Under the pieces are notes generated by a model that worked only from the letters and a program-made list of their open reading frames with translations, had not been told where the DNA came from and searched no databases. Shown piece after piece: positions 4,647 through 45,826 of a stretch of DNA of 64,000 nt (position 1 is its first letter; each line of letters opens with the position of its first letter). The position numbers were made by a program, and so were the translations under genes. This stretch comes from Solirubrobacterales bacterium (lineage in GTDB: Bacteria > Actinomycetota > Thermoleophilia > Solirubrobacterales > 70-9). The stretch is from NCBI GenBank assembly GCA_036381235.1, contig DASVDE010000014.1, positions 35,306 to 99,305 on the forward strand, given 5' to 3'.

Positions 4647-5423
4647 TCAGCCCGCCTGAATGCAGGCCCTGACTACGTCGCCGGCGACGCGAGTGCCGTC
4701 GCTGAAGGCGGCGACACCGTGCGCATATAGGTGCTTGGTTGGGCATTTCGCGGTGAGCAGGCTCTGCTTCTTGCCTTTGTAGGTGAATTTCCGGTCCACC
4801 GTGAGGCTGAAGGAGACAGCCGAGCCGGCGCCGCCGGCGATCGTCGGAACCGAGGCAACCGCTTCATACCCGAACTTGCCTTTGTTGATTTTCTTGACCT
4901 TGACCGTGGTGACGATTGCGGTCGGGGTCGGCACGCTGACGTAGGCGTGGACGAACATCGTCGTCACGCCGCCCTTGACGCCGCCGTTGAAGAGGACGAG
5001 GGGGCCCTTGGCGGTGAAGGGCGAGGAGTCCTCAAACTGAACCTCGACCTCGGTATCGCCCTTGCCGATGATCGCCGTGGGGCAGGCCTTCTTCGCGCTC
5101 TCCGTGTCGCGGGCCTGGAGCTGGCCTGACTTGCAGACGGGAAGCCCCTTGGCGTTGATCACCCCGTTCTTGTCGAAGTCGAGGATCACCTGTTTAATCG
5201 CCGGCGGATGGGTGCCGTCGGCGGTAGCGAGCTTGCCGCTCGCCTGAAGCTTGATCGGCGCGTAGGTGTTCTTCGGAAGCTTCTTGGGCACGACGTCGCC
5301 GTTGAAGGTAAGGATCAGATTGCCGGCGCGGACGACGGTCGGCTTCGACGCGACCGCGACCCCGGCGACGGCGACGGCGACTACAGCGGCCAGAGTCAGT
5401 ATCCGGATCAAGTTCTTGCGCAT
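4647..5423 (-). CDS. Secreted four-Cys protein, paralog 1 of 3 (unknown family)
   Basis: I chose the ATG at 5423, which is preceded by AAGGAGAG. Signal peptide MRKNLIRILTLAAVVAVAVAGVAVAS. It shares motifs with the ORFs at 15271 and 19663: GLPxC...C..A.IGxG, FNG, IAGG.GA, and F.YKGKK.S...A.C...........DG......C. Confidence 0.7.
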   Translation of the reverse strand: MRKNLIRILTLAAVVAVAVAGVAVASKPTVVRAGNLILTFNGDVVPKKLPKNTYAPIKLQASGKLATADGTHPPAIKQVILDFDKNGVINAKGLPVCKSGQLQARDTESAKKACPTAIIGKGDTEVEVQFEDSSPFTAKGPLVLFNGGVKGGVTTMFVHAYVSVPTPTAIVTTVKVKKINKGKFGYEAVASVPTIAGGAGSAVSFSLTVDRKFTYKGKKQSLLTAKCPTKHLYAHGVAAFSDGTRVAGDVVRACIQAG

Positions 5424-6366: not shown

Positions 6367-7920
6367 TTATCCCCCCTGCTGAGGGAAGACATGCTGGTAG
6401 GTGGAGGGACCACCGGTTTTGCCGATCGGGGCGAAAGGCGGCTGCTGGGTGCAGCCGGGTGCAGGGATCGAACCGGAGTTGTCCTGATTGGCGAACGCGT
6501 ATTGCTTGAGGCGGTTGAAGAAATCGGTGGCCTCGTCGACGTTGCCGCCGGTTCGAGCGTTGAAGGCTGGGTTGTTGGGGGTATCGGGATCCAACGAGGC
6601 GGTGATCCCGGAGCTGCACTGGCGAGTCTCGAAGCTGGGCAGGCCGGACGCGAGCGAATTCGAGGCGAGGGGCTGAGGGTAGGCGTTTGCGCGGTTGGTG
6701 GTAAGGCGATTGGCATAGGTGGCGATTGCGTCGGGGCCGAGGTATCCCTGCGTCCGTAGGAAGTGAACCTGCTTGTCGCCTCCTGAGGGGCTAATCGCGA
6801 CCGAGTTGAAGGTCGCCGCGACGTTGGCCATCAAAGCGGTGACCTCGTTCTTGTAGAGATCGAGGCCTGTCAGGAGCGGGTTGAAGTTGCGCAGGAACGG
6901 GTCCAGGGCGCGCAGAATCGGCGGGAAGTCGTCACGGAAGAGCTTGCGCAATGCCGGGAAGGCGCGGGGCGAGAGGTCGACGACCGGGGTGAAGCCTTCG
7001 AAGAAGCCCTGTGCCTGCGGCGCCAGCTTCGCGAGAGCAATCAGCGTCGGCGAGAGCTGCCGGGCAGCGGGCACCAACTGCACCATCAACGGGTCGGCGT
7101 TCAGTGCGAAGGATTTGAGCCGCTCCACGGTCATCTTCGACTCGTCGAGGAAGGTCGGGAAGGCGCGGAACAGCGCCTCGATGTCGCGGTTGCGCGCCGC
7201 GGTGGTCGCGAAGACGGTGTTGGAGCTGTCGATCAGGTTCGCCAGCTCGCCATTGCGGCCGCGCAAGGCGCGCAGGCTGACCGAGCCGTTGCTGAAGAGC
7301 TGGCGGACGGCAAGCCGCTGGGTGTCCAGCACCCGGAAGAGTCGGTCGAAGGACTCGAAGGTCGGCTGGAACTCGCCGAAGGCGTTGGAGAGGCTCTGGC
7401 CCTGGCCGCCTATTGCGACCGAGGCCTCCTGCATCCAGGTCTGGAAGGCAGCGCGGGTGCGGGGACCGAAGGTGCGGAAGATCTCATCGAGCTGCACCGA
7501 CTTCGCGACCTGGGCGAAGGGAAGGGTGCCACCGTCGGGGAGATCCGGCGTCTCGTCGGTGGACGGGGTCAGCTCGACGTAGGTCTCGCCGAGCAGCGTT
7601 TTGGTGCGCAGGATGGCCCGGGTGTCGCGCGGGATCGGGGCGTAGCGATCCTCGATGTCGATCGTCGCCAGCGCCTGCTTGCCGTTCGGCGCCAGCTCGA
7701 TGCTCTTTACCTTGCCGACGTTGACCCCGGAGATGCGCACGTCGGACTGCTGAGCGAGCTGGGTCGCCTCATCGAAGGGGATCTTGATCTCGTAGGGCTT
7801 CGCCCGGAACGGCGTCGGTCCGCCGAAGGTGACCCAGAGGAAAAGCAGGATGCCGAAGCACGACAGCGCGAAGCCGGCGATGACCAGAAGCTGTCCTGTG
7901 CTGGGGGCTTGCTTGCTCAT
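6367..7920 (-). CDS. MCE/MlaD-domain protein (sixth of six, MceF-like position)
   Basis: The ATG at 7920 overlaps the upstream stop as ATGA. It has an N-terminal TM helix (LLVIAGFALSCFGILLFLWV) followed by the MCE core YEIKIPFDEATQLAQQSDVRISGVNVGKVKSIEL, and then a long helical/extended C-terminal region. Confidence 0.85.
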   Translation of the reverse strand: MSKQAPSTGQLLVIAGFALSCFGILLFLWVTFGGPTPFRAKPYEIKIPFDEATQLAQQSDVRISGVNVGKVKSIELAPNGKQALATIDIEDRYAPIPRDTRAILRTKTLLGETYVELTPSTDETPDLPDGGTLPFAQVAKSVQLDEIFRTFGPRTRAAFQTWMQEASVAIGGQGQSLSNAFGEFQPTFESFDRLFRVLDTQRLAVRQLFSNGSVSLRALRGRNGELANLIDSSNTVFATTAARNRDIEALFRAFPTFLDESKMTVERLKSFALNADPLMVQLVPAARQLSPTLIALAKLAPQAQGFFEGFTPVVDLSPRAFPALRKLFRDDFPPILRALDPFLRNFNPLLTGLDLYKNEVTALMANVAATFNSVAISPSGGDKQVHFLRTQGYLGPDAIATYANRLTTNRANAYPQPLASNSLASGLPSFETRQCSSGITASLDPDTPNNPAFNARTGGNVDEATDFFNRLKQYAFANQDNSGSIPAPGCTQQPPFAPIGKTGGPSTYQHVFPQQGG

Positions 7921-9329
7921 GGCGCGAAGGAGCCGCAACCGCCGACAGCCTGCAGCTGCGGATCGGGTGGGATGTCGGGCATGGCCTTGGGGTCGGGGAT
8001 GTTCGCCGCCTGCAGGACCGTTTTCAGGAATGGTTTGGCGTTGGCGAAGCCGAAGCCGAGCACGGAGCCGTTGCAGGTAAGCAGCACGAGGCCACGGCGG
8101 ACCGGGCCCTCGGCGTCCTGAAGATAAGTGGAGTTGAGGTCGTGGTTGAGCCAACCGAGATAGAAGAGGCCGCTCTCCTTGCTACCAGAGGGGTTGTAGG
8201 CGAGCACGTTGAGGGCGGTGTTGAGGCCACCCAGCGAGTTGCCGAAGCCCTTGACCGAGGTGCTGAGGTCACTCGAGCCCTGACTGAGATGGGTCAGCAC
8301 CGGCCGGATCTGTCGGGTGAAGGGGCGGATCTGATCGCGGATCGGCGCGGTCGTCTCGGCGAAGAAACGCTTGGTCGCATCGAGGGCGGGGCCCAGCGCC
8401 TGGGCCTGCGGAATCAGCTTCAGCAAAGCCGGGCGGGCGGCACTGGAGAAGCGGTTTGAGCTGGCAAAAGCCCCCTGTGCCACCTGCAGGGTGGAGGGAA
8501 GCTCCACCAAAGCATCCTGGATCGATTGTTGCTGTGCGGCGAAGTCGCCCAGAGCGTCTTTGGAGGACGTGACGAAGCGCTCGATCTGGGTATCGCGGCG
8601 GCCCAGCTCAGTGGTCAGCAAGCCGAAGTCGTGGATGACGCGCGCGAGGGCGACACGGCGCTTTGCGATCTCCCGGTTGAGGTCGCCGACGTAGTGGGCG
8701 AAGGGCTGCAGGCGACGAAGGGCGTTGCCGAACTGCTTGCCGCGCCCACCGATCCCCTCAGCACCACCCGCGAGCAGAAGCTGTAGGTACTGCTGGGTGT
8801 CGGCGTCGAGGGTGGCGAGGAAGGCATCGAGGTTGACGTTCGGCTGGGTGCGTGAGAGCGGGACGTTGGCGCCCTCTTCGATGTGCCCGGGCGCCTTGCC
8901 GGGATCGACCTCGACGACCATGTCGTTGAGGTTCGTCTTCGGTCGCAGCAGAAGGGTGGCGTCGGGGTGGATCAGCTCCAGGTACTTGGGCTCGATGTCC
9001 ATGCCGACCACCGCGTGGCCGTCCTCGAGCTCGACCGAGGAGACTTTGCCGATCTGCACGCCGGCGATGTCGACCGCCTGGCCCTGTCCCGGAGTGACCG
9101 CCTGGGCGGAGGTGAACTCACCGGTGAGGTGGACGAAGTCCTTGCCGACGAAAGGAGCCCAGGAGGGAACCGCTTTCTGCTGGGTGAAGATCCACAGCAT
9201 CATCGCGATCCCGGCGACCAGCAGGACGGCGATCGCGATCGTGTCTTTGCTGCGACCGCGCGCCTGGCGGGCCAGCGAGGTGCGGAAGTGCTGCCAGCGG
9301 GACACGTCGGGCTCCCTCTGCTCGCTCAT
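7917..9329 (-). CDS. MCE/MlaD-domain protein (fifth, MceE-like position)
   Basis: 470 aa with a TM helix (IAIAVLLVAGIAMMLWIF) and the MCE core AVDIAGVQIGKVSSVELEDGHAVVGMDI. ATGA overlaps link it to both neighbours. Confidence 0.85.
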   Translation of the reverse strand: MSEQREPDVSRWQHFRTSLARQARGRSKDTIAIAVLLVAGIAMMLWIFTQQKAVPSWAPFVGKDFVHLTGEFTSAQAVTPGQGQAVDIAGVQIGKVSSVELEDGHAVVGMDIEPKYLELIHPDATLLLRPKTNLNDMVVEVDPGKAPGHIEEGANVPLSRTQPNVNLDAFLATLDADTQQYLQLLLAGGAEGIGGRGKQFGNALRRLQPFAHYVGDLNREIAKRRVALARVIHDFGLLTTELGRRDTQIERFVTSSKDALGDFAAQQQSIQDALVELPSTLQVAQGAFASSNRFSSAARPALLKLIPQAQALGPALDATKRFFAETTAPIRDQIRPFTRQIRPVLTHLSQGSSDLSTSVKGFGNSLGGLNTALNVLAYNPSGSKESGLFYLGWLNHDLNSTYLQDAEGPVRRGLVLLTCNGSVLGFGFANAKPFLKTVLQAANIPDPKAMPDIPPDPQLQAVGGCGSFAP

Positions 9330-15088: not shown

Positions 15089-15270
15089 GGATCGTCGCCT
15101 TCCGCTCCACGGCCTCCGACCCAGTGGAACGGCGGGCGAATCGTATCCAAGGCACAGGCGCCAAGCGTGCGTGCAGGGGGTCTTAACTCGAATTCAACGC
15201 GCTACTCTGGTCATGCGGTTCGGTTATGACACCGGGAGGCGCTTTGGCAATCGAATGGAGGAGTAGCCAA

Positions 15271-16056
15271 ATGCGCAAACAGATGACTCTGACCCTCGCC
15301 TTGGCGGTGGCTGTAGCCGGCGCGGTCGTCGCTTCGACCGCGCTCGCAGCATTGGGGCCGACCGTGGTCGGCCCGGACGGAAACACCCAGGCGATCGATG
15401 TGAAGCTCTCGCCGAAGAAGCTCTCCAGGAGCACGGGAACCCCAGCCTCCTTGAAAGTGACCACGAAAACCACGACCACGACAAACGCGAACGGCGTGCC
15501 CTCGCCCGCCGTGCGGGCGGTGGTCGACTTCCCCAAAGGCGTGAGGCTGTTCGCGAAGGGGCTGCCCACCTGCGACGCCGGTCAGCTTCAAAACATCTCG
15601 ACCGACCAAGCGCTGCAGCTCTGCGGCGACGCCAAGATCGGCAGCGGCGCGGCGACGGCGCTGATCCCGGTTGGAGCCCAGGTCTTCACCGAGAACACGA
15701 CCGTGACCGCGTTCAACGGCAAGCCGCAGGGCAAGAAGCCCACGGTCCTGCTGCACACCTACGGTCAGGCGCCGGTGCAGGTGACCCTGGTGCTGAACGG
15801 AGTGATCAGCAACTACGACAAGCAAGGATACGGCCCGCGCTTGGACATCGGCATCCCGCTGATCGCGGGTGGCACCGGGGCGCTGACCGACTTCCAGACC
15901 ACGATCAACAAGAAATTCACCTACAAGGGGAAGAAGCGCAGCTTCGTGACGGCGATGTGCGCGAATTCTCCCCTGAAGTCGCGCGGCGCGTTCACCTTCA
16001 TGGATGGCGTGACGCTGACCGCGAAGTCGCAGCACGGCTGCACGAAGAAGAAGTAG
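15271..16056 (+). CDS. Secreted four-Cys protein, paralog 2 of 3
   Basis: The ATG at 15271 follows GGAGGA. Signal peptide MRKQMTLTLALAVAVAGAVVASTALA. It has the same motif set as 4647-5423 and 19663-20433: GLPTC...LC, FNG, IAGGTGA, FTYKGKKRS..TAMC...GC. It is divergent from the first mce gene. Confidence 0.7.
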   Translation: MRKQMTLTLALAVAVAGAVVASTALAALGPTVVGPDGNTQAIDVKLSPKKLSRSTGTPASLKVTTKTTTTTNANGVPSPAVRAVVDFPKGVRLFAKGLPTCDAGQLQNISTDQALQLCGDAKIGSGAATALIPVGAQVFTENTTVTAFNGKPQGKKPTVLLHTYGQAPVQVTLVLNGVISNYDKQGYGPRLDIGIPLIAGGTGALTDFQTTINKKFTYKGKKRSFVTAMCANSPLKSRGAFTFMDGVTLTAKSQHGCTKKK

Positions 16057-16066
16057 CCGCCGGCCT

Positions 16067-16181
16067 TAGCCCCCATCCGGTGAGGGTTTCGCTTAACTTT
16101 TTCGATGGTGCGGTTGCGGCTGTCCGCGATCGGGACGCCGAAAAAGTACAAGACGCTCCACCCTCGCCGGATGGGGGGCTA
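16067..16181 (+). repeat. Structured repeat element, copy 1 (long hairpin; possible ncRNA, 3'UTR element or MITE-like insertion)
   Basis: The outer stem pairs 16067-16087 with 16160-16181: 21 bp with one G-T wobble and one bulged G. The inner conserved blocks CGCTTAACTTTTTCGA (16090-16105) and CGAAAAAGTACAAGACGCTCC (16139-16159) are identical to those of copy 2. ACTTTTTCG pairs with CGAAAAAGT. The element starts 11 nt after the stop of the co-oriented gene at 15271-16056. Confidence 0.7.
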
Positions 16182-16212: not shown

Positions 16213-19200
16213 TTACTCGACGTTCAGTTTGGGCATGGCGCGGTCGAGCCATTTCGGCAGCCACCAGACCCGGTCGCCTGCCAGCAACATCAGCGCCGGC
16301 AGCAGGACGATGCGGACGACGGTCGCGTCGAGGAACACGGCCACGGTCAGTCCGACACCCAACTGGCTGGTGGTGGCGATCGGCGCACCGGCGAAGGCAA
16401 TGAAGACGGCGAGCATGATCGTCGCCGCTCCGGTGATCACCCTGGCCGTCTTCTCGAGACCGAACTTGATCGCTTCGGCGTTGTCCCCGTGCTGTTCGTA
16501 GTGCTCGCGCATCCGCACCAGGAGGAAGACCGCATAATCGATCGAGAGCCCGAAGATGACACCGAACATCATCGTCGCCCCAACCGCGTCGACGTAAGTG
16601 CGTCCGCCCAGCGGCCAGCCCTCGGGCACGTTGAAGAGCAGAGTGAGCACGCCGAAGGCAACCGCGACCGAGGCGAGGTTGAGCCCCACTGCGATAGCGG
16701 CGAGCGGTATCGCACGGAGGACGAGGAGCATGACGAGGAAGGTGGCAATCGTGATCGCGGTTACGACGATCGGTATCCGGTCCCGGGCGACGCGGCTGTA
16801 GGTGTTGAGCTGGGCGGTGCCGCCCGCGACCCCGGTCTTCAGATCCGCCTCCTCGCCCAGCGCCTTGGCGTCCTCGTCGAGCGTCTTGTTGAGCGCGATC
16901 GAGCCGGGTGAGTTGAGGCCGTACCTGGGAATCACGAAAAGGCTTGCCGCCTGGCCGCCGTTTTTCACGTCGACCGCCGTCGCAGCTTGATCGCGCAGCG
17001 ACCCCCGAGCCCCGTCGAGCGCTGAGAGCACGAAGTAGCCGGAGTCGAAGATGCCCGGGGTTTGGTTGCGGACCCGGTCGACCCTGCGGTTCAGTGAGGC
17101 GTTGTTGGCAACGACACGCGCCTGGATTCGTCGAAGGCCGGACTGCAGCGGATAGGAACGGTGGTAGGCCTCGCCGAGGCTCAGCTGCAGCTCGGTCGTC
17201 CCGCCGACCAGCTGTGAGAGGCCGCCGGAGAGCGAATCGGTGGCGCTGCCGAGTTGGACCAGCCCGTCGTTCAACTGGCCCATCGCGTCGGAGAGCTGTG
17301 TGGCGCCGCTGGACAGTTTCTTGCCGGCGGCGGCGATCTGATTCAGCCCATCATTGAGGCGATTCGCATTCGAGCTGAGCCGGTTCAGGTTGCCGATCTC
17401 GCTGGTCAGGAAGCTGGTTATCAGCTTCGATTGATTTGTGTCTTTGGCGAGACGCTTCTGCAGCTCCGTCAGCTCATTCGGCAGGCCGGTGTATTCCGCC
17501 GCATAGGGCTGGCCGGTTGCCGGATTGGTGCCGCTGACCGCAGCGAGCGCCTGCCGCACCGCAGCGAGCGCCGCGTCGTAGTTGGGATCGGTTTTTCCGA
17601 CGGTCATCGCGCCCAGCTGATCGAGGGCGGCCTGCAGCTGCTGCTGGGCGTCCTGGGCCGGCGGGATCAGCGTCGGGACCTTTAGCTTGGACTCCTCGTT
17701 GAGGGTTTTCTGCAGCTTGCGGGACCGCGCCAGTGGATTGTTGCGGAGGTTCCGAACCTCGTTTTTAAGCCCAACCTTGATCTGGAAAGACCCGACCGCC
17801 GCCTGCTCCTGGGCATCGGCCAGTCGCTCCGCGCCGGAGACAGACTTGTCGAGCGCCTTGACGATGCGCTCGCTGCCGGAGGTGGCCTTGCCGAGGCCCT
17901 GGGCGATGGCCACCGCCCCGTCCTCCGCCTGCCCGGAGCCGTCGACCAACAGCCCGGCGCCATATGTCGCCTGGGATATGCCGTCGCGCAGCGCCGTGAC
18001 TCCGGTGGCGGCGCGACCGAGGTTGACACCGAGCCTGTCGAGAGTTGCCAGCGGGCTGGCGTCGCCGGGGGCAAGGACACTGTTGCCGAATCTCTGCAGA
18101 GGTTTGACCGATTTGGCGACCTGATCGGGGCCGACCACCGCCTGCACGCCGGGCGTGTTGGCGATCTTCCGCTGCCAACGAGTCAAGGCGGAGAGGGTGT
18201 CGGGGTCGGTGATCGCGCCGTGGTCGGTGGCGGCGACGATCGTGAAGGGCGCGTCGAAGCCGGCGCCGATCGTCTGCGTGATCAGGTCGTAGTCCTCACG
18301 CGCGGGGTCGTCGTGGGGCAGCTGCCCGGGGCTGAGAGGCCCCGTCTTCAAAGCGACAGCCGGCGCGGCGAGGACGAGGACGATGAGCCCAATCACCGCG
18401 GCAACCGGGGCGGGACGGCGCAGCGCCGCGGAGACCATGATCATCAGCCGCGAGCGGCTCTCGTCGGCAGGCGGCGTGCCGATCCGCCAGCGATCGATGT
18501 TGGACCCAACCATGACGAGGAGCGGCGGGCCGATCAGGATTGCGACGAGCACGCTGAGCACGACGACCATCGCCAGCGTCGCTGCCAACGAGGCGAGCAG
18601 TGCCCCGGGGACGACGAAGAAGGCGACCGTCATCGAGAGGACCAGGGTGCTGCCGGCGAAAATGACAGTCTTGCCGGCGGTGCGACGGGTGACTATCGCC
18701 GCGTCGATCGGGTCGGCCCCGCCGCGCAACTCCTCACGGAAACGAGAGACGATCAGCAGCGCGTAGTCGACGCCGAGGGCGAGGCCCATCATCGTGCAGA
18801 CGGTCAGCGCGAGGGCGTCGACGGTGAACCAGTGGGTGAGCAGCGAGAGCAGCCCGCTGGAGACGAACACCGTGGTGGCGCCGAAGGCGAGTGGGATCGC
18901 TGCGGCGATCGGCGATCGGAAGACCAGCAGCAGGACGATAAGCAGGATCGGGAGCGCGATCAGCTCGCTGCGCTCGCTGGCGGAGATCGACTCGTCCTGG
19001 ATCGCCCGCGAAATGGTGGCGAAGCCGGTCTGGGTGGAGACAACCGGCGAGTGGACGTGCTCGGCCAGCGTCTCGTTGACCAAATCGACTTTCTCGTTTA
19101 CCGCCTCTTCCACGCCAACGTGGAAGTCGACAACGACCAAGGCGCGACGCGGGGATGGGCGAAGCGCCGCGACAGAGCCGCGATCCCAGGGCGACAGCGT

Positions 19201-19467
19201 GGTAACCGCGGGGTCTTCGCGGAATACGCGGACCAGGTTCTGGCCCTGCCGGTTGATCTCGCCGGTCGGCCCACGCAGGAGGATCGCGAAGGTCGCGGTC
19301 TCACCGAAGTGGTCGCGCAGGATCTCGTTGGCCCGCGAGGCGTCGGTGCCGGAGATATCGAGACTGCTGGGCGCGAGTTGCTCCTCGACGTTCAACCCGA
19401 TGACGCCGAGCACAGCGAAGATCAGCAGCGCGACGGCAAGCACCCGGCGCGGGTACCGCAGCATCAT
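16213..19467 (-). CDS. MMPL/RND-superfamily membrane transporter with a large coiled-coil heptad-repeat insertion
   Basis: There are two MMPL-type 6-TM bundles (near the N-terminus and at the C-terminus). A central extracytoplasmic region of about 400 aa is rich in xxxLxxG-type heptads (LSSGATQLSDAMGQLNDGLVQLGSATDSLSGGLSQLVGGTTEL), as seen in YhgE/Pip-like proteins. The start is placed at the ATGATG (19467), giving MMLRYPRRVLAVALLIF. The longer ORF reaching 19593 is Arg-rich. Confidence 0.8.
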   Translation of the reverse strand: MMLRYPRRVLAVALLIFAVLGVIGLNVEEQLAPSSLDISGTDASRANEILRDHFGETATFAILLRGPTGEINRQGQNLVRVFREDPAVTTLSPWDRGSVAALRPSPRRALVVVDFHVGVEEAVNEKVDLVNETLAEHVHSPVVSTQTGFATISRAIQDESISASERSELIALPILLIVLLLVFRSPIAAAIPLAFGATTVFVSSGLLSLLTHWFTVDALALTVCTMMGLALGVDYALLIVSRFREELRGGADPIDAAIVTRRTAGKTVIFAGSTLVLSMTVAFFVVPGALLASLAATLAMVVVLSVLVAILIGPPLLVMVGSNIDRWRIGTPPADESRSRLMIMVSAALRRPAPVAAVIGLIVLVLAAPAVALKTGPLSPGQLPHDDPAREDYDLITQTIGAGFDAPFTIVAATDHGAITDPDTLSALTRWQRKIANTPGVQAVVGPDQVAKSVKPLQRFGNSVLAPGDASPLATLDRLGVNLGRAATGVTALRDGISQATYGAGLLVDGSGQAEDGAVAIAQGLGKATSGSERIVKALDKSVSGAERLADAQEQAAVGSFQIKVGLKNEVRNLRNNPLARSRKLQKTLNEESKLKVPTLIPPAQDAQQQLQAALDQLGAMTVGKTDPNYDAALAAVRQALAAVSGTNPATGQPYAAEYTGLPNELTELQKRLAKDTNQSKLITSFLTSEIGNLNRLSSNANRLNDGLNQIAAAGKKLSSGATQLSDAMGQLNDGLVQLGSATDSLSGGLSQLVGGTTELQLSLGEAYHRSYPLQSGLRRIQARVVANNASLNRRVDRVRNQTPGIFDSGYFVLSALDGARGSLRDQAATAVDVKNGGQAASLFVIPRYGLNSPGSIALNKTLDEDAKALGEEADLKTGVAGGTAQLNTYSRVARDRIPIVVTAITIATFLVMLLVLRAIPLAAIAVGLNLASVAVAFGVLTLLFNVPEGWPLGGRTYVDAVGATMMFGVIFGLSIDYAVFLLVRMREHYEQHGDNAEAIKFGLEKTARVITGAATIMLAVFIAFAGAPIATTSQLGVGLTVAVFLDATVVRIVLLPALMLLAGDRVWWLPKWLDRAMPKLNVE

Positions 19468-19490
19468 GGGATGGCGACGCTCGCCATCCC
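19468..19490. promoter_or_regulatory. Perfect 10-3-10 palindrome abutting the MMPL start codon (operator-like or RBS-occluding hairpin)
   Basis: On the gene (minus) strand it reads GGGATGGCGA-gcg-TCGCCATCCC, immediately 5' of ATGATG. No Shine-Dalgarno is visible outside the 3' arm. Confidence 0.45.
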
Positions 19491-19662
19491 GCTCTGGGCG
19501 AACGCGATCCTTCCGCCTCCCCCTGCTCCTCCTCCACACAGGCACGAACCATAGTTTGGCGGTTCGGCGAAAAAAAGGCGCCGCGAAACGCAAAAGACTC
19601 TGTTAAGAACAGGCGCATCCCGAGCGCGCGCAACATTTGACGCTAGCCTCGGTTCGAGGAGC

Positions 19663-20434: not shown

Positions 20435-20507
20435 TGGGCCGTGAAGGGCTCGAACCTTCGACCTTGAGATTAAGAGTCTCCTGCTCTACCAACTGAGCTA
20501 ACGGCCC
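20435..20507 (-). tRNA. tRNA-Lys (anticodon CUU)
   Basis: The reverse complement is GGGCCGTTAGCTCAGTTGGTAGAGCAGGAGACTCTTAATCTCAAGGTCGAAGGTTCGAGCCCTTCACGGCCCA. It folds as a cloverleaf with a 7-bp acceptor stem, a GTTCGAG T-loop and the anticodon loop CTCTTAA. CCA is not encoded. Confidence 0.9.
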
Positions 20508-33552: not shown

Positions 33553-34882
33553 CGCCACCCAGTGCAACGAGGAGCAGCGGATAGAACCAGACGATGTAGA
33601 GGTAGAACCAGTGCTGGGCGGTCAGCTGCAACCCGATCAGCAGCGCGGCACCCAATGCCGCCACCTGCACCAGGGTCTTCTTGCGCGGTCGAAACGCCAG
33701 CAGAACGGACAGCGCTCCAACGACAGTGAGGATCGCGACCCGCAACGGCTCCAGACTGCTGACCTGACCCCAGATGCTGAACGGAGAATCTCTGCCGGCC
33801 TGGTAGGCGATCGTCCGGTCGTAGAACGTTGAGATCCCCGGATCGATCAGGGCCCAGGCCATCACTGCCGTTGAGGCGATGACAAATGCGCCGGCGAATA
33901 GTGCCGCGGGTGGCAGGGGGGGAGGGGGGTCGAGGACAGCCCGTGGACTGCCCGCAGGGCCCCCCTCCCCCCCTGCCACCCGCGGTCTATACGTCGCGAG
34001 CATCGGAACCAGCAGGACCGGAGCGAACTTCGTGAAGACGGCCAGAGATGCAAGCGCGCCCCGTGCAATCGGGCGGGCGAGGAGCAGCAGGGTGGCGACC
34101 AAAAGCAAGGCGACGAGGGAGTCGTTGGAGTTGGACTGCAGGACGAAGTCGGTGTATGGGTAGGCGGCCCAGCCGAAGGCGAAAGTGGCGCCCAGTTTCT
34201 GGCCGGAGGGTCCGGGGCGGATGCGGCGGCCGAGGAGGAAAAGCAGGGCGAAGGTGGCGAGGTCGAAGAAGACTGCGGCGCCGTGGGCGGCGGGGAGATC
34301 GTTCCACGTCCCCGACCAGGGCCAGATCCGCTCGAAGGGAACGTAGGCGTAGTAGTTGACCGGGCCATAGGTGTCGCCCTGGGAAACGTCGTCGGGGAAG
34401 TTGCCGTAGATCGGCTCGCCGTGGGCGATGCGGTTGGCGCCCACCTCGCTCGCGTAACCGACGTCGATCACACCCGAGTCGGCCATGTTGAGGCCGACTC
34501 GGAAACCGACCAGGAAGAGAGCGGCGATCAGCAGCCAGGTCGCCGGCCAGACTGGGCGCAGCCCCTCCCCCCCGCCGCGGAAGCCGATCCACAACGCACG
34601 GCAGAGGAGGTAGAGCAGCGGTGGGTACTGGAGGGGAACGGAGACGCCGATCTCACCGCGGTTGAACCAGATGTGGGAGAGGCCGAAGGCGAGCAGGACC
34701 AACAGGTCGAGGTTGGCGATACGCCAGGGGCGGCGCCAGTCGACTAGGCCAGCGAGGAACATCGCGCAGAGCGGAACGAAGACGTAGGGGGCGTTGAGCT
34801 TGTGACCGAACTGGCCCTCATAACCGCGCGCCATCTCCCAGGCGGCCTGATAGCCGTGCCAGACGGTCTCCGGGTCGGTCAC
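33494..34882 (-). CDS. Polytopic membrane protein, possible GT-C-type glycosyl/mannosyltransferase
   Basis: 462 aa with more than 10 predicted TM helices. The function is only a guess from the architecture. Its 3' end overlaps the convergent ymdB-like gene by 59 nt. Confidence 0.4.
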   Translation of the reverse strand: MTDPETVWHGYQAAWEMARGYEGQFGHKLNAPYVFVPLCAMFLAGLVDWRRPWRIANLDLLVLLAFGLSHIWFNRGEIGVSVPLQYPPLLYLLCRALWIGFRGGGEGLRPVWPATWLLIAALFLVGFRVGLNMADSGVIDVGYASEVGANRIAHGEPIYGNFPDDVSQGDTYGPVNYYAYVPFERIWPWSGTWNDLPAAHGAAVFFDLATFALLFLLGRRIRPGPSGQKLGATFAFGWAAYPYTDFVLQSNSNDSLVALLLVATLLLLARPIARGALASLAVFTKFAPVLLVPMLATYRPRVAGGEGGPAGSPRAVLDPPPPLPPAALFAGAFVIASTAVMAWALIDPGISTFYDRTIAYQAGRDSPFSIWGQVSSLEPLRVAILTVVGALSVLLAFRPRKKTLVQVAALGAALLIGLQLTAQHWFYLYIVWFYPLLLVALGGVKDRREPSPARSSWPTPDR

Positions 34883-39784: not shown

Positions 39785-39858
<74 letters not shown>

Positions 39859-41554: not shown

Positions 41555-42283
41555 CTAGTGGGACCCACGGGGGCGCTTCTTGGCCATGCCCGGTCGGCGG
41601 GGGAGATCTGCAGGAGTTGTGCCCGTCTTGCGGACTACGTGGAGATGGCGGTGCTCGCTGCCTGCGCGGGGGCCGACGGGGAGGATCTGCTCGGGGCGCA
41701 TCCCTAACTGAGCCGCGGCTCTATCCAGCTGCTGCTCTTCGTCGGGGTCGCGCCTTCCCTTCCAGGCGACCAGCACCCCGCCTTCTCGCAGAAGCGGAGA
41801 GGCCAGCTCGGCGAGAGTCGAGAGGCGGCCCACCGCGCGCGCGGTGACCGCCCCGTAGGCCTCGCGACCTTCGCCCCCCGCGAGCTCCTCCGAGCGCGCG
41901 TAGATCACATGCGCGTTCGAAATTCCCGAAGCATCGACCGCCCGTTGCATGAAGTCGCACTTGCGGCCGATCGACTCGACTAGATCTACCTGAGCTTGAG
42001 GGTTAGCCGCGGCGATTACCAGGCCGGGAAACCCAGCCCCAGAGCCAATATCCGCGATTCGATCGGCTTCGCGAAGCTCCGGAACCTCAAGCCCGGTGAG
42101 GCTGTCCTCGACATGGACCCGCCAAGCTCTTTCGTCCGTAATCGAGCTTACCGAGGCTCGCTCGCTCGCCAGAAGCTCCAAGACGCGCGCGATCGTCGCG
42201 CGCTGGGCGGGCTCGAGGGAGGGTCCCGGTAGGGGCGGAGCGTCTTGTACTTTTTCGTCGTCAGCCATCGTCCATCGCCGCAT
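41555..42283 (-). CDS. rsmG: 16S rRNA (guanine527-N7)-methyltransferase RsmG (GidB)
   Basis: It has HVEDSL and the SAM motif DIGSGAGFPGLVIA. Both candidate ATG starts (42283 and 42268) lie inside the loop of repeat-element copy 2, so the N-terminus is uncertain. Confidence 0.85.
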   Translation of the reverse strand: MRRWTMADDEKVQDAPPLPGPSLEPAQRATIARVLELLASERASVSSITDERAWRVHVEDSLTGLEVPELREADRIADIGSGAGFPGLVIAAANPQAQVDLVESIGRKCDFMQRAVDASGISNAHVIYARSEELAGGEGREAYGAVTARAVGRLSTLAELASPLLREGGVLVAWKGRRDPDEEQQLDRAAAQLGMRPEQILPVGPRAGSEHRHLHVVRKTGTTPADLPRRPGMAKKRPRGSH

Positions 42284-42328
42284 AGGCAGCTTCGAAAAAG
42301 TTAAGCGGAGTCCCTACCGGGACCCTCC
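42218..42328 (-). repeat. Structured repeat element, copy 2 (long hairpin between the jag stop and rsmG)
   Basis: A perfect 17-bp outer stem: GGAGGGTCCCGGTAGGG (minus strand, 42328-42312) pairs with CCCTACCGGGACCCTCC (42234-42218). The inner blocks are identical to copy 1: plus-strand 42292-42307 is the reverse complement of CGCTTAACTTTTTCGA, and 42237-42257 is the reverse complement of CGAAAAAGTACAAGACGCTCC. Confidence 0.7.
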
Positions 42329-42810
42329 TACTCGGAGACCAAGGGCGCGACGACCACACAGCGGCGAGGCTCGTCGCCCTCGCTGTAAGTCTCGACCCCG
42401 GAGCGCTCCTTCAGGTGCTCATGGACTACGCGGCGCTCCTGGGCTGTCATCGGATCCATTTCGACAGTGTGGCCGGCGGCGAGGGCCTGCTCGGCGGCGC
42501 GGTCGGCGCGGGCGACCAATGCCTCGCGGCGGCGCTCCCGGTAGCCGGCGGCATCGACGATGACTCGCTTGCGATCCCGCATCCCGCGGAAAGCTGCCTG
42601 ATAGCAGAGGAGTTGAAGAGCATCGATCGTTTGGCCGCGCTTGCCGATCAGCAGCCCGTAGTCGTCATCCCCCTCGACGATCGCCTCTATACGGCCGTCG
42701 TCCTCGCGTATCTCGACCTCCCCATCGAGATCGAGCTCGTCAAGCACGCCTTCGACGAGCTCTCGAACCCGCTCGGCGGGCTCTTGCGGCCAATCCGTCA
42801 TCTCGCTCAA
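42328..42810 (-). CDS. jag: Jag-like KH/R3H RNA-binding protein (lacks the Jag_N domain)
   Basis: 160 aa with a KH-like segment LLIGKRGQTIDALQ and an R3H-like segment ERRVVHEHLKE. It occupies the conserved position downstream of yidC. TTG start. Confidence 0.75.
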   Translation of the reverse strand: MSEMTDWPQEPAERVRELVEGVLDELDLDGEVEIREDDGRIEAIVEGDDDYGLLIGKRGQTIDALQLLCYQAAFRGMRDRKRVIVDAAGYRERRREALVARADRAAEQALAAGHTVEMDPMTAQERRVVHEHLKERSGVETYSEGDEPRRCVVVAPLVSE

Positions 42811-42811
42811 G

Positions 42812-43591
42812 CTACCGCCTCTTCTTCCGCTTTTTTTTCGGGGGCGGCGGCGGCGGTTTGGCCGCTGCTTTCTCTTCGGGTGTGGGAGCGTGTGGAGCGG
42901 GGATCATCCTTTGGATCGTGTACTGCTGGCCGATCGTCCAAACGTTTGTGGTGATCCAGTAGAGGACGAGGCCGGCAGGGAAGCTGATCACGAAGGGGAC
43001 GAAGATCAGCGGCAGGACGAACATCATCGTCCGTTGACTTTTGTCGGCGGTGACCGCCATCACCAGGCCGGAGATCAGCTGCGTGCCCACGTAGAGGATC
43101 AGTAGCGCGATCAAAACGCCGCCGGTTGCCTTAGCCGTCAGGTCGGGGATGAAGAGGAAGCTCTCCCCCCAATTGCCCGGTGGGACCTCGCTGCAGACCT
43201 TCGCGGTCTGGCCGCAGATGTCGAAGCGGAGATCGTGCTGAAGGACGTAGAAAAGCGTGATGAAGACCGGCAGCTGCGCTAGAAGCGGAATGCAGGAGGC
43301 GAAGGGGTTGACTTTGTTCTCCTGGTAGAAGCGCATCATCTCCTGCTGCATGCGCTGCCGGTCGTTTTTGTATTTCGCCTGGATCTCTTTGATCTGGGGC
43401 TGGAGAGCCTGTAGCGCGCGCATCCCTTTCAGCTGTTTGTAGGTGAGGGGGATGAGCAGCGTGCGGGTGACGATCGTCAGGGCGATGATCGCGCCGCCCC
43501 AGCTGAGGCCCACGTCGTGGAAAAAGTTGAGGACCTCGTCGGCGATGTCGACGAGGAACTGTGGGGCGAGCTGAAATCCGAGCGGCAGCAT
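42812..43591 (-). CDS. yidC: Membrane protein insertase YidC (short, Gram-positive type)
   Basis: 259 aa with IALTIVTRTLLIPLTYKQ...MQ.LQP....IQ.KYK.D, a 5-TM pattern, and a Lys/Arg-rich C-terminal tail. Confidence 0.9.
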   Translation of the reverse strand: MLPLGFQLAPQFLVDIADEVLNFFHDVGLSWGGAIIALTIVTRTLLIPLTYKQLKGMRALQALQPQIKEIQAKYKNDRQRMQQEMMRFYQENKVNPFASCIPLLAQLPVFITLFYVLQHDLRFDICGQTAKVCSEVPPGNWGESFLFIPDLTAKATGGVLIALLILYVGTQLISGLVMAVTADKSQRTMMFVLPLIFVPFVISFPAGLVLYWITTNVWTIGQQYTIQRMIPAPHAPTPEEKAAAKPPPPPPKKKRKKRR

Positions 43592-44446: not shown

Positions 44447-45826
44447 TTGCGTCGAAGCTCGGTGCCGGGGCGAGCGGCGGCGTTATGGTCGCTCGTCGTG
44501 CCTGACGGAGCCAGCTCAGCAGACCTTGACGCCATTTGGCGAGAGGTTCGGGGGCGGCTGCGGGCTTCGGTTCCCGAGTCGACCTACAAGCTGTGGCTCG
44601 AGCCCCTCAGGGCGGAGGGAATGCGGGCGGAGACGCTCTATCTGTCGGCTCCAGAGGGAATTCGGGCTTGGGTCGAGCGACGTTACTCGGAACTGATTCG
44701 GGAGACGCTGAAGGGGACCGGGCTGCGGGAATTGAGCTTCGCGCGGGTCGAGGAGGGCGCGCTCGAAAGCGCGCCCTCCGAGGTGGAGCTGAACCCGAGC
44801 TACACCTTCGAGCGATTCGTGATCGGCGAAGGAAACCGAATGGCCCATGCGGCTGCGCTGGCCGTCGCCGAGGCCCCCGGCGAGGCCTACAACCCCCTGT
44901 TTCTGCATGGCCCCCCGGGGCTGGGAAAGACCCATCTGCTGGTGGCGATCGCCAACTACCTGCGCACCAACGCACCCGGCTTGAGCGTCCGCTACACGAC
45001 CGCCGAGCGCTTCACCAACGAGTTCGTTGGCGCCCTGCGCCGCGCCGGCGTCGAGGCATTCAAGAGCCGCTACCGCGATATCGACGTGCTGTTGATCGAC
45101 GATGTCCAGTTCCTCGAGGGCAAGCAGCGAACCGAGGAGGAGTTCTTTCACACCTTCAACGCCCTGTATGAAGCCGGCAGTCAGCTGGTTCTCTCCGCCG
45201 ATCGCCTGCCGAGCGAGCTGGCCGACCTCGAGTCGCGCCTGCGCGACCGCTTTGAGTGGGGGCTTACGGTCGCGGTCGATCAACCCACCCTGAACACCCG
45301 CCTGGCGGTGCTGCGACGTCTGGCAAGCGAGGCGGGTGTCGACATCGCCGACAACCAGGCGCTCTCCGAGCTGGCGCACCGGATCGACGCCAACGTGCGA
45401 CAGTTGCACGGAGCGCTGACTCGGGTGATTGCCCATGCCTCGCTGATGGCAAAGCCGCTCAACTCCGAACTGATCGCCGAAGTCATCCCGAACGTCTCCC
45501 GTTCGGCGCGCCCCACAACTGTCGAAGAGATCCAGCAACGCGTCGCCTCTTCCTTCGGCGTCTCGCGCGGCGAGCTGGTCGGCTCGACCAGGGCGGCAAC
45601 TCCGTTGCGCGCCAGGCAGGTCGCCATCTTCCTCACCCGTGAGCTGACCGACCTCTCGCTTCCTCAGATCGGCCGCCTCTACGGTGGCCGCGACCACTCG
45701 ACCGTGCTCAACTCGCTGCGTCGTGTCGAAGCGGGACTGGCCGAGGATCCGAATCTCTCCGAACGAGTTCGTGAGCTGCGCGAGGCAATCCACATCTCCC
45801 CACAGCACAAGCCTGACAGCCGATAG
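44447..45826 (+). CDS. dnaA: Chromosomal replication initiator DnaA
   Basis: It has the AAA+ motifs [10 protein letters not shown] and LLIDDVQFL, and the domain IV segment [32 protein letters not shown]. The start is uncertain: TTG 44447, GTG 44462 or GTG 44498. Confidence 0.95.

Follow-up and report, generated by a model that had tools for sequence, protein, structure and literature searches.

Insertion of a palindromic interspersed repeat has probably remodeled the jag-rsmG junction and the rsmG start in Solirubrobacterales

ERIC (IRU) sequences, RU-1 (127 bp), Correia repeats (NEMIS), and RUP are multi-copy bacterial repeats of about 100 to 150 nt, each forming a single long imperfect hairpin and lying in transcribed spacers. 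The hairpins of Correia and ERIC are processed by RNase and change the expression of neighboring genes. Mycobacterial MIRUs occupy intergenic positions within operons, where their small open reading frames (ORFs) overlap the flanking stop and start codons and coupling is preserved. REP and GTAG-tagged repeats are described in one account as lying mainly downstream of coding regions, among unidirectional and convergent ORFs, and occasionally within genes (PMC3733652). Intragenic copies with open frames are likewise mentioned for enterobacterial repeat units (PMC2759123), and an account of the miniature inverted-repeat transposable elements (MITEs) of Coxiella considers their implications for protein evolution (PMC5896051). 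In the 64,000-nt stretch of Solirubrobacterales contig DASVDE010000014.1 analyzed here (the window), a long hairpin separates jag (khpB) from rsmG. This hairpin is one copy of a family of palindromic interspersed repeats of about 115 nt in the Solirubrobacterales. We consider it likely that insertion of the repeat broke the native jag-rsmG junction and that rsmG now starts at an ATG in the repeat's loop.

The complete junction element (outer stem, core, loop, core, and outer stem; 111 nt) occupies positions 42218 to 42328 of the minus strand, where a covariance model of the family matches 42211-42334 with 111 bits. Its left (5') outer arm, GGAGGGTCCCGGTAGGG (42312-42328), pairs perfectly over 17 bp with the right (3') outer arm, CCCTACCGGGACCCTCC (42218-42234), which codes for RsmG residues ..PLPGPS. 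The jag stop codon lies at 42328-42330, and the outer stem opens with its last base, the G of TAG. With up to three mismatches allowed, the outer-arm pattern has three matches in the window, against 0.45 expected. Further inward, the conserved 5' core block CGCTTAACTTTTTCGA (42292-42307) contains the inner-stem arm ACTTTTTCG (42293-42301), and the conserved 3' core block CGAAAAAGTACAAGACGCTCC (42237-42257), which codes for ..EKVQDAP, contains the partner arm CGAAAAAGT (42249-42257). The resulting 9-bp inner stem encloses a 35-nt apical loop (42258-42292) of what we call type A, and the gapped inner-stem pattern occurs twice in the window, with no occurrence expected. Two ATG codons, at 42283 and 42268, lie inside the loop, both in the rsmG frame. 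The predicted minimum free energy of the 127-nt stretch is -63.1 kcal/mol, compared with -40.8 +/- 3.4 kcal/mol for shuffled sequences (z = -6.58), and 0 of 200 shuffles fold as stably. The first-pass annotation of this DNA had described the perfect outer stem beginning at the jag stop codon, the conserved blocks paired around the loop, and both in-frame ATGs within it, neither with a good Shine-Dalgarno (SD) sequence; all of this is borne out, the SD-like sequence being weak before both codons.

The other copy in the window lies on the plus strand at approximately 16070-16177 and is flanked by convergent genes, one at 15226-16056 (plus strand) and an MMPL-like gene at 16213-19593 (minus strand). 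It carries the blocks CGCTTAACTTTTTCGA and CGAAAAAGTACAAGACGCTCC as at the junction, around a loop of another type that has no ATG, and its outer stem differs in sequence while remaining complementary. Its shared blocks, the ATC in place of ATG, and the 1-nt indel, all previously pointed out, are confirmed (the loop is 1 nt shorter), and the earlier view of the peptide similarity (EKVQDAPP) is correct: it stems from repeated nucleotides, not from conservation of a protein. A census of the window with the covariance model returns exactly these two copies, at 111 and 108 bits.

An exact gapped pattern derived from both window copies, TTAACTTTTTCG-N20-50-CGAAAAAGTAC, was scanned on a one-genome-per-species collection. 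It matches at least 118 stretches, nearly all in metagenome-assembled genomes (MAGs) of the Solirubrobacterales/Thermoleophilia and often several per genome. A profile search of the fetched loci (numbered with the prefix L) adds 10 copies that depart from the pattern in the inner stem but are still paired, with compensated stems such as TTTTTGG/CCAAAAA, TTTTTCTG/CAGAAAAA, and TTTTCGG/CCGAAAA. Overall, the family comprises more than 130 copies in MAGs of these groups, two of them in the window. One copy, at 7909-8000 of locus L059 and truncated by the locus end, lies on a MAG contig labeled Chloroflexota; it is the only one outside Actinomycetota labels among the matches listed and may reflect a binning error or a transfer.

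Alignment of 123 complete copies over 137 columns gives a consensus fold of 31 pairs, 21 of which show double compensatory changes. The pair at columns 9/125, for example, is GC in 47 copies, CG in 41, AU in 13, and UA in 7, and the core pair at columns 29/105 switches cleanly between GC (65 copies) and AU (56 copies). All four Watson-Crick pair types occur at most positions of the 20-bp outer stem, whose ungapped form has a median of 20 Watson-Crick pairs. The core of about 70 nt is asymmetric, consisting of ..YCRCTTAACTTTTTCG, a loop of 30 to 40 nt with few subtypes, and CGAAAAAGTACAAGACGYTYC.., with fixed bulges TTA / ACAAGA. Sequence conservation peaks at the center and falls off outward: the core is nearly invariant across many genera, and the outer stems of about 20 bp are specific to each copy in sequence and almost perfect in Watson-Crick complementarity. 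More diverged copies retain only the core of about 70 nt, inside wholly different perfect stems of 20 to 30 bp. Loop subtypes cluster by genome, as in the four copies of OY969700.1 and the two of OY970392.1.

Rfam 15 at gathering thresholds gives no match to the element in the window, the only matches at that level being two tRNA genes (39785-39858 and 20435-20507, both on the minus strand), and a lenient scan of the element returns chance-level matches only (E above 0.8); a known RNA family was dismissed as its identity on these grounds. Phage carriage was likewise dismissed, the exact-pattern scan of a viral contig collection yielding 0 matches. A full-text literature search found no description of the repeat for Solirubrobacterales or Thermoleophilia. 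The family is previously undescribed and is a new form of palindromic interspersed repeat, outside any named family.

In size, copy number, single long hairpin, and location in transcribed spacers, the element resembles ERIC, RU-1, Correia, and RUP, but it has no sequence similarity to any of them. Further, those families have conserved termini (terminal inverted repeats) and a flanking duplication of TA or another direct duplication, whereas here the center is conserved and the ends are copy-specific. Like MITEs in general, the element is short, noncoding, and multi-copy (about 115 nt, at least 118 stretches, two in the 64-kb window) and polymorphic in presence at orthologous sites (34 filled versus 44 empty; see below); its termini, however, are complementary within a copy and differ between copies instead of forming conserved inverted repeats. 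It shares with REP sequences the placement downstream of genes, the preservation of a hairpin rather than of a fixed stem sequence, and a GTAG motif in many copies (CCGGTAGGGG). REP sequences, however, are palindromes of 20 to 40 nt with an unpaired GTAG or CGTC tag, whereas the element measures about 115 nt and its GTAG is base-paired and present in about half of the copies (column 19 T). A general GTAG-type tag of the genome, GGYAGGGG, was considered and is not enriched in the window (7 occurrences versus 6.3 expected). As with Rickettsia RPE and Coxiella MITEs, a palindromic repeat joins coding sequence, here probably as the first 17 residues of RsmG and as an in-frame internal segment of an ORF in loci L009 and L056. 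The element differs from these in belonging to another phylum, in lacking sequence similarity to them, and in most often lying outside a gene, right next to its stop codon; it would provide the rsmG start codon itself, whereas RPE and Coxiella MITEs are internal inserts. MIRUs differ in being tandem direct repeats rather than palindromic hairpins. The element shares with intrinsic terminators a hairpin and a position close to stop codons, but it lacks the U tract that immediately follows a terminator's G+C-rich hairpin.

Comparison with relatives suggests how the junction arose. A metagenome scan with Jag yielded 80 loci at 79-88% identity, 78 of them with an informative junction. The element is present at 34 of the 78 junctions, in every case immediately behind the jag stop codon and in the sense orientation, and absent from the other 44. 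Of the loci that the genome scan supplied, two (L032 and L078) have it at the same site, and L103, whose Jag is 83% identical, does not. Most empty junctions read GAGTGA, with the rsmG GTG overlapping the jag TGA, and encode an RsmG N terminus of the form V-S-x-D-P-T-A-x-L-D-P; L103 has this GTGA stop/start overlap, and its RsmG begins V-S-R-D-P-T-A-A-L-D-P-A-G-R-E-A-L-G-R-V-L-E-L-L. The V-S-x-D-P-T-A-x-L-D-P motif is common to diverse empty lineages and missing in all filled ones. This distribution indicates that the GTGA arrangement came first and that the element was inserted later, with loss of the native start and roughly eight codons.

The junction appears to have changed repeatedly. On a neighbor-joining tree of Jag plus RsmG, a minimum of 11 changes is needed to explain presence or absence of the element and a minimum of 16 to explain loop subtype, with subtypes A, B, C, and D represented by 24, 4, 4, and 4 junction copies. 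Four subtypes at one site may reflect either independent insertions at a favored site or exchange between copies. Part of the presence/absence change is secondary loss. L141 (empty) and L151 (filled) are 90% identical, and in L141 the element has been deleted, leaving the last 6 nt of the right arm; at approximately 1975-2000 of that locus, a 20-bp perfect palindrome, GCTGAGTGAGCTCACTCAGC, spans the jag stop and the rsmG start. Similarly, the sequences just after the jag stop in L135 (GGGAG-GA-CTCCC), L153, and L120 resemble remnants of L168-, L183-, and L139-type copies, respectively.

Within the window, the rsmG frame is closed upstream by a TAG in the left arm, and the only in-frame starts ahead of the conserved RsmG body are the two loop ATGs. 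The upstream one (42281-42283, minus strand) opens the longest ORF (41555-42283) but is genome-specific, with no counterpart in relatives. The ATG at 42266-42268 (minus strand) has an in-frame equivalent in each of the 24 type-A junction copies, always 28 codons ahead of the VLELL motif, and is where the NCBI protein HEX7059251.1 (237 aa) begins. The distance from the jag stop to this ATG, by comparison, takes seven values in the type-A junctions, from 58 to 64 nt. A right half of fixed length beside a freely varying left half is expected if the right half is translated, suggesting that the ATG at 42268 is the codon actually used. The rsmG gene would then span 41555-42268 (minus strand), with its first 17 codons (42218-42268) inside the element. 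The 17 residues encoded there, MADDEKVQDAPPLPGPS, sit N-terminal to the methyltransferase domain; the GidB profile aligns from about RsmG residue 48, at profile position 25. An insertion donating a new 5' end, one of three possibilities raised in the first-pass annotation, is strongly supported by the GTGA overlap and different N terminus of element-free relatives together with the in-frame loop ATG in 24 of 24 copies.

Several observations weigh against this account. The SD-like sequence upstream of 42268 is weak (GATGGACG-ATG), although relatives have GGAGGACG, which is better, or GGGGGACC. A loop ATG is missing from junction copies of types B, C, and D, and not every copy can thus offer a start in the loop in this form. 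Type-A copies at unrelated loci share the ATGG motif, so its presence at the junction is a family trait and no proof of selection. Mobility is deduced from presence/absence and the clustering of subtypes within genomes, and neither a target-site duplication nor a fresh insertion was identified: no consistent direct repeat appears in 122 flanks or in filled/empty pairs, where the pairs are at most 90% identical and some empty sites are secondary deletions. Finally, a host function could also account for the near-perfect stems of old orthologous copies and for a core conserved throughout an order.

Copies without a loop ATG nevertheless have in-frame alternatives. In types B, C, and D these are a loop GTG, a GTG arising from a GTAC>GTGC change in the core, a right-arm ATG, or codons a short way past the element. 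The GTAC to GTGC change, in an otherwise invariant core, is found in L144, L172, L177, L183, L184, L190, L194, and L195, where it creates an in-frame GTG (M-Q-D-A..); in type D copies it supplies the sole in-frame start within the element. Taken together, these alignments indicate that rsmG has re-acquired a start in several ways.

The strongest alternative is that the element is maintained by the host as a gene-end feature (a bidirectional terminator, a stabilizer of mRNA 3' ends, or a protein site), with the junction copy insulating jag from rsmG. Gene context, called by a heuristic based on ORFs and third-position G+C (GC3) that leaves many boundaries unclassified, lends support to this idea. 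In most copies no more than about 5 nt separate the end of the upstream stop codon from the first paired base, and the codon often reaches into the stem, as at jag. Gene ends outnumber starts at both boundaries (47 sense gene ends versus 16 antisense gene starts on the left; 27 antisense gene ends versus 20 sense gene starts on the right). Under a cruder classification, 37 copies are co-directional sense, 36 convergent, 16 co-directional antisense, and 12 divergent, so that convergent spacers are enriched and divergent ones depleted; the sense orientation is favored in co-directional spacers by 13:3 in the boundary analysis and 37:16 in the cruder classification. The nearly invariant core over many genera and the perfect stems of old copies also fit. 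The element thus marks mainly gene ends, with a bias toward the sense orientation, but copies also lie upstream of genes and in frame within ORFs. Further, the outer stem is not followed by a run of T on the plus or the minus strand, and the one call of a simple terminator scan is a small internal stem ahead of GTACTTTTTC on the plus strand; with no sigma-70-like promoter detected inside the element either, a promoter or classical terminator role was rejected. The patchy distribution among close relatives with its deletion remnants, the clustering of loop subtypes by genome expected of recent amplification, and the exclusively Watson-Crick pairing described next, which speaks against RNA selection, also count against a host-selected gene-end element, which we regard as possible but doubtful.

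Selection on the RNA should make G·U pairs common and A·C mismatches rare on the transcribed strand, and we therefore split the copies by the direction of the neighboring gene. In copies downstream of a sense gene (708 stem positions), 674 positions are Watson-Crick, 5 G·U, 15 A·C, and 14 other mismatches. The 35 junction copies, which are sense-transcribed (714 positions), have 695 Watson-Crick, 5 G·U, 6 A·C, and 8 other positions. RNA-level selection on the stems was rejected, there being no excess of G·U over A·C. The stems thus pair strictly by Watson-Crick rules, with few mismatches of any type. This pairing, together with stems that are perfect yet specific to each copy, suggests that a DNA-level cause maintains the palindrome; the candidates are propagation by way of a folded single strand, correction of either arm from the other, and frequent renewal.

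The same counts bear on the idea of a cis-regulatory RNA dedicated to rsmG, in the form of an operator for translation or a site of RNase processing that would sequester or present the start, and the first-pass annotation had likewise raised translational or processing control. The hairpin is highly stable, holds a start codon and weak SD-like sequence in its loop, is in the sense orientation in 34 of 34 junction copies, and keeps its pairing at the orthologous site despite differing stem sequences; moreover, its stem begins at the jag stop, where a ribosome ending translation could unfold it. However, the element recurs at more than 130 unrelated places in both orientations, including between convergent genes, in frame within ORFs, and in 5' regions, with no one gene or regulon in common, and 44 of 78 junctions of close relatives do without it. 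Four loop types occur at the site, three of them lacking a loop ATG, G·U pairs are not enriched, and no Rfam family matches. Control of rsmG is not borne out as the reason for the element, and we consider a dedicated regulatory RNA improbable; a regulatory side-effect of the hairpin on rsmG is possible.

Least probable by our estimate is the third earlier suggestion, that rsmG starts downstream and the whole element is a 5' untranslated leader: the weak SD-like sequence before both ATGs and the type B copies with an in-frame GTG or ATG 127-136 nt after the jag stop, past the element, fit it, but beyond 42218 the window offers a single in-frame start, a TTG within VLELL, whose use would delete L-E-P-A-Q-R-A-T-I-A-R-V, recognizably akin to L-D-P-A-G-R-E-A-L-G-R-V of element-free orthologues (L-E/D-x-x-x-R-x-x-I/L-x-x-V), and the right half is invariant, at 28 codons from ATG to VLELL in 24 of 24 copies, where the left half varies.

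Under the insertion that we favor, the ancestral junction would have been the 4-nt GTGA stop/start overlap, implying translational coupling. A copy of the element would have landed directly after the jag stop codon, taking away the native GTG and the first eight or so codons (S-x-D-P-T-A-x), and rsmG translation would have passed to the ATG at 42268, carried by chance in the type-A loop. In the window, the overlap is replaced by a spacer of 59 nt and a hairpin of -63 kcal/mol with the start in its loop. A ribosome halted at the jag TAG would cover the next 10-12 nt or so, most of the left outer arm; jag translation would then loosen the hairpin base and favor initiation in the loop, an indirect form of coupling. 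When jag is not being translated, the start would lie in the 35-nt loop, and a 30S subunit may be able to open the A/U-rich 9-bp stem at the loop's base. The long perfect stem would also present an RNase III-type duplex, cutting of which would separate the jag and rsmG cistrons, and a cut in the outer stem would in addition detach the loop ATG from the rsmG body.

The family itself may spread as selfish or mobile DNA and be kept palindromic by a DNA-level process, such as hairpin-dependent mobilization or arm-templated correction, rather than by selection on RNA. A bolder version, which we put forward only tentatively and think unlikely, is that the hairpin is recognized as folded single-stranded DNA and that a DNA-level process extends its perfect stems outward to the flanking stop codons. 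By analogy, the fixed bulges TTA / ACAAGA would resemble the extrahelical bases read by single-strand hairpin recombinases, and the process acting on the stems could be self-templated correction of the arms or insertion into existing hairpins.

A further idea considered was that the palindrome grew outward and so supplied rsmG codons, with Q-R-A-T-I as an antisense copy of jag C-V-V-V-A-P; it is unproven. The inverted match GCGACGAYCACGC occurs in several loci, but scores in filled loci (medians 7-10) are not above the native empty median of 7, and the Q-R-A-T-I / C-V-V-V-A-P match involves a single variable position without covariation. A 9-nt exact complementarity between TCGTCGCGC and GCGCGACGA (42193-42201 and 42345-42353), in register with the element stem, joins 3' codons of jag to 5' codons of rsmG; similar matches occur in L032, L168, and L192, and over all loci they are not above background.

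In four loci, two copies in opposite orientation lie 300-450 nt apart: L009 (4541-4659, plus strand, and 4967-5093, minus strand), L056 (4119-4241/4572-4694), L114 (1310-1432/1745-1867), and L015 (7203-7328/7607-7732). In L009 and L056, whose ORFs were read, the pair flanks the 5' part of a protein ORF, and one copy is in frame inside the long ORF of a conserved membrane protein without a Pfam match. The product is conserved on both sides of the insert, a conservation that rests on two species only, and the first halves of the two inserts are read in different frames, converging on KKLSGTP. The second L009 copy lies directly upstream of an ORF beginning MADRTFAKFTFFKVDP, which we take to encode a chlorite-dismutase/HemQ-like protein. 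A stable-RNA gene between paired copies was considered and rejected: an Rfam search of L009, L114, L015, L056, and L082 returned only an unrelated c-di-GMP-I riboswitch (L015, 3285-3369, minus strand, 54.7 bits; a Solirubrobacterales MAG locus).

The window covers the chromosomal origin region, with dnaA (44447-45826) and dnaN on the plus strand and rnpA, yidD, yidC (42812-43591), jag/khpB, rsmG, parA, and parB on the minus strand, and has a G+C content of about 67%. Jag, with KH and R3H domains, is encoded at 42328-42810. The rsmG-parA spacer is also a landing site, with one or two element copies in L161 (2758-2874), L147 (2662-2774 and 2821-2895), and L157; in L032 the same spacer (approximately 1615-1784 of the extracted segment) holds another hairpin, with a stem of about 29 bp (GGAGGGTAGGGGGTCATCCCTGGAGTTCC..) and an unrelated interior. 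Besides the two element copies, the only long local hairpin of the window is a perfect 26-bp inverted repeat at 33904-33985 (CCGCGGGTGGCAGGGGGGGAGGGGGG and its complement) with a 30-nt loop; its interior is unlike the element, and it has a stop-like TAG immediately before it and CTA immediately after.

For annotation, the first 17 or so codons of rsmG in element-bearing genomes are repeat-derived, as probably are those of other genes adjoining the element, and start calls and EKVQDAPP-type N-terminal "conservation" should therefore not be read as protein homology. For genome evolution, the junction records a full cycle: a coupled GTGA overlap, a palindromic insertion, a new start, and occasional deletion with remnants. 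New starts appear to have been recruited in at least four ways, as a loop ATG, a loop GTG, a GTG from GTAC>GTGC, and a right-arm ATG. Remodeling of a gene start by a repeat has precedents; what adds interest for those who study repeats and gene starts is the inverted layout, the stems paired only by Watson-Crick rules, and the insertion-deletion cycle at a housekeeping junction. The usual MITE layout is reversed, with a conserved center and hypervariable but perfectly paired ends. If the folded-DNA proposal were true, the family would be a new hairpin-based genetic element that remodels gene ends and starts across a whole bacterial order. The family occurs in many uncultured soil Solirubrobacterales, and it offers a tractable case for the origin and upkeep of long palindromes in bacteria.

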